A stretch of 64,000 nucleotides of DNA from Chrysomallon squamiferum (lineage: Eukaryota > Animalia > Mollusca): the NCBI GenBank assembly GCA_012295275.1, contig CM022671.1, forward strand, positions 35,898,001 to 35,962,000. The letters are read 5' to 3'. The notes beneath the pieces are model-generated. The model was given only the letters and a program-made list of their open reading frames with translations, was not told the DNA's origin and searched no databases. Below, piece after piece: positions 49,501-58,000 of this stretch (its first letter is position 1; each line of letters starts with the position of its first letter). The position numbers were made by a program, and so were the translations under genes.

Positions 49501-52326
49501 TAGGAGACGGGTAGCTGGTGAGCCAGAGTCTGAAGTCTGCGTGAGTGTTTTCTGTGGTGAAATCCTCACAGATCTTTTCTAGTGGAGTCATCCACGACAC
49601 AGCTAAGTGACAGTTCTGCAGCAGAACCCAGGTTCCATCCTGCCGAGCTGCGTCTATCATTTTAGCTGCTATAGGACCCTGAAAATAAACACAGCAAGCA
49701 TGGGTCAGTCGCAGAAATATGATATTTTCAATTTATTTAACACCAAATGAGACACAAACAAAAACAGTTAAATAAATATTTACTCTTTAATCCTTTTGAT
49801 GAATACTTTTGTCTTTAATCTCCTTATCACTCCTCTCACCGTATCCAAATATTGACCTACTGATACATGCATTATGTAACTGTAAACACAAGTAAGACAA
49901 ATACCTGGCCCTGTCCAAGTGAGATGGAGTTGAATTTCTTTGCTCCGTATCCTTTGTCATCAGCAAACTTGAGCAGACTCATGGTGGGGTCAGCCCCAGG
50001 GGACAGGACAAAGATGAGGGGAGTGGTCTGGTTTGAATCAGCATAACTCTTTGCCAGGTCGAATGGTGGAGGCTCAACAAACTTCTTACCTAACTTCTCC
50101 ATCACAAAATCAGTGATAGCTGGAATTATCTGAAACACAAACAAACATCTGTAATTATAGAATTATCTTACTTGACATGTGCTTATTTCTTTTTTATTTA
50201 AAAGTGTATTACTTAATAAATGATTGTTAAATAACTCTGTATATTATAATATTGAAAGGTAAAATTAAATAAATAAATAACTCATACCCTGTATAAATGG
50301 GCCAGTTCTTACATTCAGAGAGCTTGAAGAGCATTAATATTATTTTAAATGGTAATTAGAAGTGAATAAATGACTATATATATTTAATTATATTAATAAT
50401 TATTAAAAATTAAAACAAAATTTCTGAAAAGAATGAGAAAACTGATTTTGATTAATCACTTTTTATGACAGATGAAGGTAAAACAATAATCTTTTACATG
50501 CAGTGGGAGTCCTGGCTGGAACTGGAGAAATGAAATGTCATGTGATTACCTTGTCAGGTCTGATACAGCGAAGCACCATCATCTTCTCAAAGTCAATGAG
50601 ATCTTTGTCCCAGGGGCTAGGCAGGGGCATCTTGTTCGGTTCCTTTGACGCATAATATTCTCTCCATTTGTCCAGATTCTTGGTGAAATGATCTCTAAAA
50701 ACATTTGTCAATATTTGTTACAGCAGAGACACACATCCACTCAGACACAGGACACTTACACACAGATATATACTTACACTTAGATATATATATACTAACA
50801 AACAGATAGATACTTAAATATATATATATACTTACAAACACATATACTTACACAAAGATGCGTACCTACACATAAATATATACACAGAAATGATCATGTT
50901 CATTATATGTCTATTTCGATTTGGATTTCTGTTTATATATGTTCATTTTACAGACATTAATTATATTGTTATGGATACAAGTAAAATAAAGATTTTGAAA
51001 AGGGAGTTACTTTTAATTAATTCTATAAACTAACAATGTGAATAATTTTTTTTTTTTTTAAATGCACGAAACAATACCAGTTAAAAATAAGAAATGGTAT
51101 TAAAATTTTAATTTTACACTAGGAATATTTTCATTAGCTCATGGACTTGTGTTCACAAAATGAAACTTTTTAAAAGGGTCATGATGAAATTACAGAAGAT
51201 GTTTGGTGCCATTACGACAGTATCCATGGTCTGAGAGATCTATTATTTATTGCTGCAGTGATCAGTGTCTCTGATGTTTTAGGAGTGTGTAAATAATACA
51301 TACAACTCTGACATTTCAACTACTCTGCTGGATGGATCCAGTTTTGTCTTCTTGTAGAAATTAATAAAATCTTTGTGTTGTATCACAAATTCTTAAACTA
51401 ATTACTTGTTTTTTAAACTGACACAAACACAGACAGCTAAAATATTGTTTTGAAAATGAAAGAGTAAATCAGAATTTTCTTAGACTATTAAAACTGAATG
51501 TATCGCCTGACCCTGAAACCATAATTCACTCACTCTCACTAACTTTCTCTCTCTCTCACATACACACACAATTTATATAACAAAGACATATACATATAAA
51601 ACACACAAACCACATATTTGATAACAAATTTTACCTGAACTTTTTGAAGTTGGTCAGTTCTGTAAGACGACAGATTTCATCCCAGGATTTATCTGTGAGC
51701 CACTGAGGGGCGGGGTTGGCCAGCTTGTTCTCCAGCCCCACCCCTCCAGTGAGCAAGAACATGAAATCATCGTGTTTTAGATCCTTCCTTGCTCTGAGAA
51801 ATTAAAACAAATTTGACAGTATTATTACCTAATCTGTGATTTTAATATTTTATATTTAATACACATAAAAGATGAAATATGCATTAGTGAAATGTAATAA
51901 TAATTAAAGTAAGCATCTTTGCAATAAGTTATGTTAAATGTACAAGAAACAAAATTATTCAAATGATATTCATATATTAATAGATAATTTTACTTTAATA
52001 TAAACACAAAATTTAACAGAACATTGAAAATTATAATCTTATATTTTACACGCACACACACACACACACACACATATCACAAACCCACACTTTTACCCAT
52101 TCACAGAAACACAATAGCACACATAAACACATTTAAACATGAAGTTAATACATAATGTGAATCACAACAAAACAAAACACAAAACAGTTAGTTACAACAC
52201 ACAGTATTAGACAAACACAACAACTCAGATACTACACTAGTTTCTGAAAACTAGTCCTATTTCTAAAGAAGAAAATAAACACTATCTTTGTTATCAAGGA
52301 AATAGATGAAATGTATGGTTATTGAA

Positions 52327-52381
<55 letters not shown>

Positions 52382-54451
52382 TATATATAAAAGACTGAAA
52401 TGAATAAAGAAAAAAGAAAACTAGAAAAAATGAGAAAATGTGAGAAAAAAAAAGAGGAAAGATCCAAACAGTGAATTTAGGCCATAAAAACACTGTAAAA
52501 ACCTGTAAAAACACCATACTCAACACTTTTCTAAATGTAAGAAACCTGATCACACCCTCTGCCCTCCCTGAGTACTTTCTTTTTAAATTTTTATAAATGA
52601 GTCAGTACTCTTTCCCCTTCCCGCCTGACTTATTTTTATTTGCTTTTAATAAATGTTTGTAAACAGAATAATAGTCAACTATTCACAGCTTGTTTGTTTC
52701 CTAAAAATAAATAAAAAAATACACATCCCATCCTTTACTGTACACTTGCATTTCAAGATTTAATAAAAAAAATAATACAAACAATAAAAATGTTAACAAT
52801 TTTTTATTAGTTTGTTAAATGACTGAAAACACCCAACTTTTTATTGATTACTTTTTTCTCTAGGTGTTGATATTTTTACTCCAGCTTTACTGAACTTTAA
52901 ATTTTTTAAATATTTTATATAAAACAGTTTCAGGTTCACTGTGCATTTGCTTGTTAAATATTTACAAAGTTGACTGTGCCCTTTACTTATTTGCTTATTA
53001 TGAGAATTGAATGTTCATCTCTGAGTCTATTTGAATATGTATTATAAAATGTTTCTCACATCTTAACACCCAATCTAGAAGTTTGTATATTTTGTTGTTT
53101 GACCATATATTTGTTTATCAGGTATTTTGAAAACCGGTCATACCCTCCTTTATATCAGATTATTAACAACTAGTATGTAAATCACAAATCTGGTTACTTT
53201 CTGTTAGTGACGCTCACTCAAGTTTCAAATTTTAAAAATGTGTTAAATTGTGCATCTTCTAAACAGCATGCTGTAGTGCAGGAAATAAACATTGTTGATG
53301 ATGTCATCACTTGTTGCCAAGACAACAGAAGTCAAAAACAAACTGTGGTGTCCATCACTTGTTTGGGTAAAAAATATTTAAAAAAACAAAAAAACAAAAC
53401 AAACAATAACAGCAGTGCACACCAATCTGTATAGTGATCATACTAGTACACACCATTTTGTGTTAAGTTCAACATTAAAAATGTAAAACACACTTAGTGT
53501 GAGTAGAAAATCAAAAATCACGGCAGCGATGCACACGTTTTTCTTGTGTGAGAAAAAAAAAGAAAAAACAACAGCAGTGCACACCAGTTCTGTGAGTTGA
53601 AAAAGAAAAATGACAACAGCATGGCAGGCAGGTCTGCCTGCAGGACGTGGCCTGTACTTACGACAGAATGTTGGAACAGAGAATGAAAGAGAAAAGAAGT
53701 TTGTCTTTCTCAAAGAGAGAACGACACACGCTGCAATAAAGGTTGTAGGTGAAATGGTCCGAGAGATAGCGTAATCGCTTTTCCAAGATCTTGGATTTGT
53801 TGCTGAAAAAACAGGAGACAAAGTCATTAGGAACTACAGAAGAAGATGACTAGATTAAACCCTGTCCACTAGGACACAGAGCAGGACCCAGTTCTTGTTG
53901 TCTGCAGAACGATTTGCTTGGTAAGGTAGTAAAATACTATTTTAAAAATTCAAATCTCAGATGCTTTTCTTATAAACCTAACTTACCAAACAAAATCACT
54001 GCTAACAACAAGAACTGTTTCTGAAAAAAGATGAAAGCTCTTCTATAAATTATTTCATGACAAACACAAGACAAAAATCTAAGTTTCCATGTCTGTTATT
54101 ACAAATTAAAGTTTAAAATTTATTCCTCTGTGTTTGCCAATGAAGTAACTATAGAGCAGCTTTCATCAGACACATATAAATACATGAATAATCTGCTGGT
54201 ATGACTAAATACTCACAACTGCATGTTGGCACACAGAAGGAAAGCAAACACGAGCTTGTGTTTGGCAAACAGAGAGCGAGATACATTGTCATACAACTGA
54301 TAGGAGAAATGATCCTTGAGGTAGCGCAGACGTTTCTCCAAAATCTTTGACTTATTACTGAAAAATTACCTCACAGCATGTTACACAGAAACTGTTATAT
54401 CTCTAGCTATTCGTTTATTTCCTACTAATTATATTTGTACTACTAGTAGTC

Positions 54452-55011: not shown

Positions 55012-58000
55012 AACTGTCATCATCATCATTTCATTACTAATTGCCCATCAGTAAGAATATTGAGAACTATGTTGTTATTATAATGTGCTATTTTTAATTG
55101 AATTTATTTGTGATATATACATTATTATGTTGTTATTATTATTATTATTATTAATCCTGCTACTATTATTATTATTATTACTACTATTGTTATTGTTTAT
55201 TATTACTTATCATTATCATAATCTGCTGAAAGACAAACATACTCAGTATTATAAATATAAACAATTTACATGTTGACTCAAGGCATTCCAGCCTGGTCAT
55301 ATTAAATATTCAAATGATCAAACTGTTTTTGTTTGTTATACGAATCAGCTTACACAAACAACACAACATCTATCTACAATCTTGTCATTTTATTAACTTT
55401 CGGTCATGTTATCTTTAGTCTATTTCTTTTCTAAAGAGTGAGGAAAAACACCTGAGGAAGTGTATTGTTTAAACATGATTGTATCAGTGAGTTACACAAC
55501 ACACAGAGATGAATGTATCAACACAGCCTGCAGCCAATTACCAGATTGCATCAAAAAATAACACCCAGCTTTCTCTACCCACAGGCCCTTGTTTACAGTT
55601 CTTAGTCTACACTTCGTAAAGTAAATAAAATGACAAAAAACATTACCTGTAATATATATTTTCTAAGGTAAATGAAATGATTACAAATGTTATGTATAAT
55701 ATATATTTTGTAAAGTAAATAAAATTCTGATGAACATTTTACCATTAATATAAATTTTGTTAGGTGAATATAACAAAATTTTGATACAAATTTCACTGAT
55801 AATAAATATTTTCTAATGTGAATAAAACAGAATTAAGATAAGGTTCATTTATATCAAATATTCTGTAAGATGAATTAGAAAATGTTAATATTAAACATTC
55901 ATCTATAACAATACATCTTGTAACGTGGATGTAAGAAAATAAAGGTAAAAATTTAAGTACATATCATTCTATGATCTTGATTCATGGTTCTTAATACACT
56001 TTTTTAGATTTATTTATTTATTTATTTATTTATTATTTTCTGTTATATGACAAAAAGTAAAGACATAATCTATGACATTGTAAAATACAAATACATATTT
56101 ATGTTGACTTTTAGCCTTTTATTTAAATTTGCTGTTGTACAGATTGTAGTGATATGTAAATTTTGATTTCTGCAGGCAACATGCAACAGAAAAACTATTA
56201 TTAATTTTTTTTTTTTTAAATAACTGTTTATCATTTGAATTATGATTTTTCACTCCCTTGTTCTTGTAAATCTCAAAATCAATATAATCTGTTCCATACA
56301 TAATATACATATTCAAACTAAAATGATTGACTTAGGGCTGATAGGAGAATAGCTGAAAAATGTCTTTCTAACTTATGAAGTTGGTAGATAAAATATTTTG
56401 ATAATTTTTGGTTTAGATACAATTGATGGAAAAATAAATTCGAATTTGTGACTGTCTAAAAACATTTTGAAACTTAATAATTAATTAAAAAATAATAAAT
56501 AAATGACATAGACATAATATTGCATAGATATATAATGAAACAAATTGGAAATTAATTTAAAAAAAACACTGAAATAATAATAATAATAATAAAATAATAA
56601 ATTTAATGAAATAAATTAAAATTTAATAAATAAATACATTTAAATGTACATGAGAGAAAATAAAATAACAATTATAATAAAATTAAAAATAAATTAATCA
56701 TAAATATAATGTTTTCTGTAAATAATAAAACCAGCCATGATAGGTATAGTAAAACATTAAAAAGAATTAAGAAAGTAAAAAAATAAAATAAAATAAATAA
56801 TAAAATAATCATAAATATAATTTTCTCTGAATGTAAGAAGACAGTCCATGCTAAGTATAGTAAAACACTGAAAAGAACTGAGAAGGTAAAAGAAATTACC
56901 TGTCATGTATTGACATGATGAAGAGGTTGACAAACCAGATGAGAGAGTACTGGTACATGGGGTCAATGTTTGGCAGGTCAGCGATGGAGAAGAACAAGAT
57001 GGAGGAGTGTTTGGCTATTGGTCTGTAGCCCATTCGAGACGCTTCAATTTTCTTCTCTGTCTCCTCTGCAACCTGTCACAACAAACATTTGAGTTTTTAA
57101 ACATAACTTATGATTTACCATCAACATAAACAATTCCTTAATCTTCATATTTTGCAAAACATTTTGTGTGTGATGCCTAATCATAATATTTTAACAAGCA
57201 TTTAAGTCCAGTCCTATTAACTTAACTTCAGAATTTTACTATAGACTCAAATTAATTAATTTTACATAAATTTCATTACTTAACCCCAGTACTACCTAAG
57301 TTGCTTTGAATTAATATAGAGAAAAAAAAAAAATAATAAAAAAATTAATTAATTAATAAAAAAAACAATAAATAAAAACCCATCAAAGAATGTAAAAAGA
57401 AGTTAAGATAAAACATCTACCATCTGTTTCTTAGAGATTTCATCGGAGAGTATTTTTGAGGAGTCAAGGATCTGGATGGCGCTCTCGTCCTCCAGGATGT
57501 TTCCCTCTGATGCAGACAGTGTGAAGAGAATCTTGTCTTCTATCTCCTTCAGCTGTTTACGGTTGGCTGCACCCGTGACAATCAACACCTGACGTTCCTC
57601 CTCTAGTTCAGGTCTGAGAAAATTAAATATACAATTACTTACTCAAATTAAATGTACTATAACTTACTCAAATTAAATGTACATTTACTTAACCAAATAC
57701 CTGTTGAACAAACATCAGTTTGCATGTTTCTAAGTTATTCTTTTACCTCTTTGACACACCAATATCATTTTGTATGTTTCTAAGTTACTTTTAATTTTTT
57801 TTTGAAACACCAATATTATTTTGTACATTTTAAAGTTATTTTAAAATTTTTGACACAACAATATCATTTTGTACACTTCAAAGTAATTCTTTGAATTTTC
57901 TGATACACCAATATCATTTTGTATGCTTTTAGCTGATTTTTTTAAAATTTCTTAACACAAACTTTTCTAACAATAAAGTATAAAAATTGGTATTGGAGGC

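Follow-up and report, generated by a model that had tools for sequence, protein, structure and literature searches.

The locus studied here raises the question of whether and how the joining of two tandemly arranged alternative exons to each other is avoided, and what part the intron between them may have in it. The window, i.e. the whole stretch of DNA that was analysed, comprises 64,000 nucleotides of the mollusc Chrysomallon squamiferum (GenBank assembly GCA_012295275.1, contig CM022671.1, positions 35,898,001 to 35,962,000 of the forward strand), and all coordinates are counted from its first nucleotide. The two exons, named A and B, are separated by an intron of 414 nt (54216-53803, minus strand) that contains two back-to-back inverted repeats. 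A previous reading of this DNA, made from the sequence alone and hereafter called the sequence-only reading, had noticed one of these repeats and had proposed that a 34-nt piece hidden in it is a poison exon, which would send messages containing both exons to nonsense-mediated decay (NMD). The features discussed below are listed in Table 1.

Table 1. Features of the exon A to exon B region, in the order of transcription
Feature	Position	Strand	Basis
Upstream constitutive exon (DNAH12)	56900..57072	-	tblastn and open-frame model; 3' end is a loose end of RNA contigs at the start of exon A
Alternative exon A, 141 nt, divergent copy	54217..54357	-	Human DNAH12 residues 3179-3223; spliced between the flanking exons in X2 and X3
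Predicted distant branch-point motif CTGAT, A at 54166 (intron +51), at the foot of hairpin 1	54165..54169	-	Motif scan; same motif class at +51 in L001
Hairpin 1, 5' arm	54105..54167	-	Folding
Hairpin 1, 3' arm, covering the start of the pseudo-exon pyrimidine tract	54030..54090	-	Folding
34-nt pseudo-exon (second allele: 32 nt, stop-free)	53987..54020	-	Sequence; none seen spliced in 3 RNA runs
Segregating 2-nt indel that removes both in-exon stops	54002..54003	n/a	Deleted in X5 and X1 (X1 by its loose end); X2 has the window allele
Hairpin 2, 5' arm, holding the pseudo-exon body and donor	53978..54017	-	Folding
Hairpin 2, 3' arm	53889..53929	-	Folding
Two small stems and ordinary branch motif CTAAT of exon B (A at 53827, 24 nt before the acceptor, predicted paired)	53822..53876	-	Folding, motif scan
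Alternative exon B, 141 nt, conserved copy	53662..53802	-	Human DNAH12 residues 3179-3224; up to 96% identity to animal homologues
Downstream constitutive exon	51635..51793	-	tblastn and gene model; 5' end is a loose end of RNA contigs at the end of exon A

Gene model and alternative exon pair

By tblastn, a minus-strand gene was found to span ~63,750 to 45,150 in 19 exon blocks. It encodes an axonemal (ciliary, inner-arm) dynein heavy chain, DNAH12. The closest named protein to exon B is P0019 of the snail Batillaria (96% identity), and the best solved relative of P0019 is DNAH12, with 2,091 bits versus 1,874 for DNAH7. Exons A and B both match human DNAH12 starting at residue 3179, between the Pfam domains AAA_9 and Dynein_heavy, and share 70% amino-acid identity. 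Their equal length, their equal phase and a reading frame that is completed by either exon are the features of a tandem-duplicated mutually exclusive pair. In a hand-checked gene model the frame remains open over 1,002 codons with A or B and over 1,049 codons with both. As messages containing A and B thus stay in frame without a stop, NMD alone cannot remove them, in agreement with the sequence-only reading.

Transcripts were examined in three RNA runs of one study (X1, X2 and X3), as assembled contigs, which show presence and from which rare forms drop out. The contigs were mapped to 53620-54400, and joints to the flanking exons are therefore visible as loose ends. In X2 and X3 the contigs coincide with exon A from end to end, and the loose ends they carry match the terminal sequences of the two flanking constitutive exons; exon A is therefore spliced in, with the 34-nt piece and exon B skipped. 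X1 yielded a single unspliced low-depth contig that spans the intron and 45 nt of exon B, and a contig of a fourth run, X5, spans the whole mapped stretch, exon B included. The A-B joint was found in none of the contigs of the three RNA runs, and no joint of any kind was listed in the four runs mapped (X1, X2, X3 and X5). Splicing of exon B was not seen in X1 to X3, and the missing cover of exon B in X2 and X3 says nothing on its absence.

Homologous exons were searched in other genomes. L001, a metagenome contig from another animal, carries an A-type exon and, 1,190 nt later, a B-type exon. Three DNAH12-like isoforms of 4,016 residues are annotated in the clam Mercenaria mercenaria (XP_053377920-922) and differ only within this exon; according to the NCBI annotation, isoform X2 is A-type and isoforms X1 and X3 are B-type. 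A tapeworm gene model holds two copies of the exon. A tree built from 101 distinct rows of 46 residues places 11 A-type rows on one side of a 100/96 branch, which is supportive rather than independent evidence, as the A-type group was chosen by residues in the same columns as the tree and the bootstrap is unsettled. The claim of an alternative exon pair is thus borne out by the splicing in runs X2 and X3, by the A-then-B order in L001 and by the clam isoforms: the tandem-duplicated pair is real and old, and it is conserved in relatives. With such an alternative exon in the motor domain, shared by molluscs and probably by flatworms, a single gene could supply different cilia or flagella with two distinct motors.

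The scan of metagenome contigs gave five loci, three of them with the exon; L002 and L003 represent one exon-A locus type, with exon B not within the contig. Eleven loci with single distant matches (at most 71% identity) were found in prokaryote genome contigs, and none in viral contigs. The dynein heavy-chain sequences in L006-L014, which are titled as bacterial or archaeal genomes, probably stem from eukaryotic DNA contaminating these assemblies. In the clam, three versions of the exon occur (P0324, P0325 and P0327), and the cluster has therefore expanded in at least one bivalve.

Several other features were observed next to the exon pair. The segments 55286-54800 and 54805-54328 (minus strand) form a near-identical tandem duplication of ~475 nt, which copies the acceptor and the first ~25 bases of exon A and yields a decoy acceptor 472 nt upstream as well as a 41-nt frameshifting pseudo-exon (54829-54789). 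This duplication may be recent, polymorphic or an assembly artefact. Each duplicated unit contains a 28-nt stretch (54764-54737 and 55245-55218) that resembles the start of the A-B intron, perhaps as the relic of an older copy, the likeness being not significant against shuffles (p 0.10). The intron after exon B harbours short direct repeats of 13-34 nt at ~53500-53620, which are putative protein-binding sites.

Two hairpins in the A-B intron

Almost the whole 34-nt piece and its donor had been described as complementary to 53889-53929, and this complementarity was confirmed to be far beyond chance. The resulting stem, named hairpin 2, comprises 34 Watson-Crick and 3 G-U pairs, no A-C, 2 other mismatches and 3 gaps, with a loop of ~50 nt. 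Its predicted folding energy is -48.5 kcal/mol (z -6.79), and none of 200 shuffles folded as well. The other inverted repeat, hairpin 1 (-46.5 kcal/mol, z -6.78), had been overlooked. It begins at +50 of the intron, lies 12 nt from hairpin 2 and shows no clear likeness to it. Hairpins 1 and 2 take the top two places, in this order, among 2,371 overlapping 150-nt windows of the minus strand, microsatellite windows being excluded (composition-adjusted z -4.51 for hairpin 1 and -4.48 for hairpin 2). When the 18 introns of the gene were folded as 22 segments, the A-B intron came out lowest (z -5.7). No long-range duplex other than the two hairpins rose above the shuffles in our search. The third-strongest local fold, a G/C-rich hairpin (51780-51631, z -4.0), is located inside the downstream constitutive exon.

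According to the predictions, hairpin 2 pairs the donor of the 34-nt piece (p 0.97-1.0 for 8 of its 9 nt), whereas hairpin 1 pairs the first 8 nt of the pyrimidine tract of its acceptor (p at least 0.88). The AG of this acceptor, located in the linker that joins the two hairpins, is partly paired, its two bases having unpaired probabilities of 0.57 and 0.30. The U1-like CUUACC pointed out in the 3' arm of hairpin 2 is indeed present, and it is simply the complement of the GGUAAG donor. The small stems described near the branch motif of exon B are present as well, and AGUCAU/AUGACU pairs with a probability of ~0.8-0.9 in context.

The introns of the relatives were folded similarly. Two stretches of the L001 A-B intron, partly consisting of simple repeat, fold well (z -3.6 and -3.0, with flanks at -0.2 and 0.4), and no pair of long hairpins was found after +51. 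The intron after the A-type exon shows no unusual folding in L002 or L003. Neither the L001 intron nor that of L003, both of them distant, has significant sequence likeness to the window intron. Some look-alikes between the window and L001 introns (AGCAG after the donor, AGCTTTC before an internal AG, and a stem over TTG/GTA) were discarded, since shuffled sequences aligned just as well (p 0.875 and 0.67). The L001 A-B intron contains a 15-pair stem (1772-1786 with 1944-1958) over a donor-like TTG/GTAGAT, loosely reminiscent of hairpin 2 with no homology shown. In L002, the acceptor junction of the A-type exon has an 83% complementary stretch in the intron that follows (268-285 with 506-523), which could be due to chance.

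A candidate branch point at +51

The A-B intron contains a CTRAY motif with its A at +51. The L001 intron has such a motif at the same offset, with 7 of 8 bases identical; by chance, a motif would be expected there with a probability of 0.6% at exactly this position and of 2.8% if a shift of up to 2 nt is allowed. In the gene as a whole, a CTRAY motif lies within 60 nt of the donor in only 2 of the 18 introns. The +51 motif was sought because of a steric model of exclusion and was thus partly set in advance, and its support comes from one relative, L001; in L002 and L003 no CTRAY motif was found within 120 nt of the donor.

The smallest distance between donor and branch point is given as ~50 nt in passages of PMC5740500 and PMC7969005 and as 60 nt in a passage of PMC13762713. 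Position +51 is at or just over this steric limit. A branch point at this position would be too close to the donor of exon A, and the joining of A to B would thereby be sterically blocked. With the intron folded down by the hairpins, the same branch point could serve the acceptor of exon B. The predicted folding shortens the path from +51 to the AG of exon B from 363 to 46 steps. In addition, the hairpins would mask decoy splice sites, the 34-nt piece among them.

There is no long AG-free zone between +51 and the acceptor of exon B. The intron contains 27 AGs after +51, of which 26 are internal, most of these being predicted to be paired; in 3 of the 27 both bases are predicted to be unpaired. 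The AG of exon B itself is predicted to be paired in the same fold, and the accessibility count therefore discriminates little. The AG of the 34-nt piece lies 11 steps from +51 in the predicted fold. According to a passage of PMC5224494, AGs 8-12 nt from the branch point are passed over, and this AG would come close to that range, provided that a hairpin is counted as a single step. An ordinary branch motif is also present for exon B, 24 nt ahead of the acceptor in the window and 38 nt in L001, and it speaks against a need for +51. The adenosine of this motif in the window (53827) is predicted to be paired (unpaired p 0.12), which would favour +51, but the adenosine at +51 is itself predicted to be paired (unpaired p 0.01), which speaks against its use.

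On balance, we consider it slightly more likely than not that the hairpins serve the splicing of the exon pair, by masking or by compaction. The explanation as a whole, in which the hairpins would hide decoys and fold the intron so that a +51 branch point serves exon B and blocks A-to-B joining, is a tentative one to which we give slightly less than an even chance. The distant-branch-point step, taken specifically, is doubtful.

The 34-nt pseudo-exon

The 34-nt piece is bounded by an acceptor and a TTG/GTAAGT donor, as had been described, and the two in-frame stops are present too: in the incoming phase, the window allele reads N S S C C stop Q stop. A 2-nt deletion found in X5 and X1, which belong to two studies, removes both stops, whereas X2 carries the window allele. 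The 32-nt allele still shifts the frame, and its inclusion leads to a downstream premature stop, so that a premature stop results from inclusion in both alleles.

The acceptor and donor of the piece score within the range of the real sites of the gene, and no other internal GGTAAG occurs in 15.2 kb of introns. Nevertheless, as scored with a crude matrix built from ~19 of the gene's own sites, it ranks 10th of 1,187 intronic AG-GT pairs, nine of which score higher, and its sites are equalled or surpassed by 18 intronic AGs and 34 GTs. No joints or loose ends at its borders were detected in the contigs of the three RNA runs, in which rare forms drop out. A homologous piece was not detectable in L001 or L003, which are both too distant to decide, and no alternative partner that could open the stems was found above chance.

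The sequence-only reading took this piece for the switch that makes exons A and B exclusive through NMD. Such a switch is unlikely. No joint was seen in the contigs of the three RNA runs, the in-exon stops are polymorphic and comparable pseudo-exons are common in the gene. Moreover, the logic runs in the opposite direction: a folded hairpin hides the 34-nt piece and thereby leaves A-B joining unpunished, and inclusion of the piece would destroy messages containing only A or only B as well. The second option of that reading, a decoy splice site, fits the data, and the piece is probably one of the decoy splice sites of the intron.

Other explanations of the hairpins

Apart from a role of the hairpins in masking sites and compacting the intron, they may be neutral or near-neutral inverted repeats, i.e. 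relics of foldback elements or miniature transposons or products of template switching, with exclusivity due to proteins or to elements located at other places and with the 34-nt piece being a product of chance. We consider this rather unlikely, although several results are in its favour. The untranscribed strand folds just as unusually as the transcribed one (z -7.52 and -5.80). The preponderance of G-U over A-C, which had been taken as an argument for an RNA-level stem, does not hold: it is 3 to 0 in hairpin 2 and 5 to 4 in hairpin 1, and the total of 8 versus 4 is not significant (p 0.19, or 0.5 given the base composition). Indels segregate in both stems. Three of the six intron differences between X5 and the window are located in the stem arms, which make up about half of the intron, and there is thus no sign of purifying selection; each hairpin loses ~4 kcal/mol by them. 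The lack of likeness to the L001 and L003 introns and the frequency of pseudo-exons of such strength in the gene also fit neutral repeats. On the other hand, no second copy of either arm was found within the 64-kb window, and a search of 5.2 million X5 contigs at 88% likeness, by which older or filtered copies would be missed, retrieved, besides this locus, nothing but 46 nt of a paralogous exon. No target-site duplication was seen by eye in the flanks of the hairpins. A match of the arms to a MITE with many genomic copies, named beforehand as an observation that would speak against a function, was thus not obtained, old copies being able to escape these searches. Neutral repeats would also require that two dissimilar hairpins, the strongest of the window, both landed in one short intron.

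The 34-nt piece may alternatively be a regulated poison exon, with hairpin 1 concealing +51 and the pyrimidine tract and hairpin 2 the donor, and with opening of the stems leading to NMD. We regard this as improbable, both as a control of dosage, as for SF3B3, and as an exclusivity switch, for which opening of the stems would have to be confined to the moment before an A-B joint is made. The premature stop in both alleles, the site scores and the single GGTAAG described above would suit a poison exon, as would the placing of its splice signals in a predicted stable stem with an only partly paired AG in the linker; owing to hairpin 1, this AG and +51 are 11 steps apart. Since NMD targets are scarce in ordinary RNA contigs, the lack of joints at its borders weighs little. 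The loss of both in-exon stops in a common allele, the many sites that score as well, the lack of a detectable counterpart in L001 and of an above-chance partner to open the stems, and the damage to A-only and B-only messages argue against it. A combined version, in which a +51 branch point would do three jobs, by blocking A-B joining, by serving exon B when both hairpins are folded and by serving the 34-nt exon, with decay of the message, when hairpin 2 is open, is a long shot. If true, tandem hairpins would replace the AG-free tract of known distant-branch-point introns and would gate the level of the B isoform.

Competing pairings of the docking-site and selector type, which is known from Dscam exon 6 and ATE1, have little chance of accounting for the exon choice. 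In such a scheme, the 5' arm of hairpin 1 could pair either with its 3' arm or, for example, with exon A or the acceptor region of A. The segment 54140-54126 is complementary to 54276-54262 inside exon A at 14 of 15 nt, and the 5' arm of hairpin 1 forms duplexes of -20 to -23 kcal/mol with several sites. These energies are, however, within the shuffled background (mean best -23.9 and second -22.2 in 15 shuffles), and no single element was found to have at least two strong exclusive partners. The central codons of exon A (54300-54276) are predicted to pair with its own donor region (54216-54197) with p ~0.9 or more, which would mask the donor, but no such pairing is predicted in L001 or L003.

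That the hairpins are precursors of small RNAs or editing substrates unrelated to exon choice, as their long imperfect stems and eight weak Rfam matches to microRNA precursors over both of them might suggest, is very improbable, because all eight matches are far below the gathering scores (e.g. 29 versus 90 bits) and some are on both strands, the loop of hairpin 2 is long, and no A-to-G differences on the transcribed strand were seen in the two RNA contigs that cross the stems (depth 3-4).

Comparison with known systems

Our preferred explanation, masking and compaction of the intron around a +51 branch point, was compared to documented systems. In Drosophila, Dscam exons 17.1 and 17.2 are likewise a two-exon exclusive pair, for which a passage of PMC7969005 reports that structure and a distant branch point act together; the mechanism was shown by experiment there and is predicted here. 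According to the same source, OGDH exons 4a and 4b are likewise separated by a short intron, with branch adenosines near the upstream donor and within a hairpin. In OGDH, branching occurs at +25 to +41, ahead of an extended pyrimidine tract with an AG-free zone; in the window the candidate lies at +51 with 26 internal AGs after it, and it is the hairpins that would have to take over the role of the AG-free zone. The A-B intron, short and almost wholly folded in the prediction, therefore offers a compact system for asking whether hairpins can do the work of an AG-free tract where the branch point is distant.

The sequence-only reading knew of no description of a hairpin-gated poison exon between two alternative exons. 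As a control of dosage, structure-gated poison exons are already known: passages on SF3B3 (PMC11162794), with a concealed branch site, and on BRD2/BRD3 (PMC10789245) describe stems that hide the branch site or splice signals of a stop-bearing exon. The exons described there are conserved, were seen spliced and tune gene dosage rather than exclusivity, in contrast to the 34-nt piece, which was not seen spliced and has polymorphic stops.

Among dynein heavy chains, Schistosoma DHC1 has a mutually exclusive exon that is likewise one of a tandem-duplicated pair of the same length (passages of PMC3228551 and PMC5100056). It belongs to a cytoplasmic dynein and not to the axonemal DNAH12, and these passages give no intron mechanism. 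No paper on an exon pair of DNAH12 or another axonemal dynein was found among the matches listed, which consisted of titles and abstract openings with few subscription journals covered. DNAH12, DNAH7, DNAH3 and dynein are not mentioned in 10 supplements of PMC5740500, and a word search of the text of PMC9741552 gave neither DNAH nor dynein. The clam isoforms are already in the NCBI annotation, while the exon switch itself is without a paper among the matches listed. The Mercenaria isoforms resemble the window pair in being of equal length and in differing only within this exon, and they differ from it in having three exon versions as opposed to the two found in the window. Steric exclusion, structure-masked sites and structure-gated poison exons are thus each already known, and the gain would be a new example, possibly a new combination, of them: an unusually structured intron within an old exon switch.
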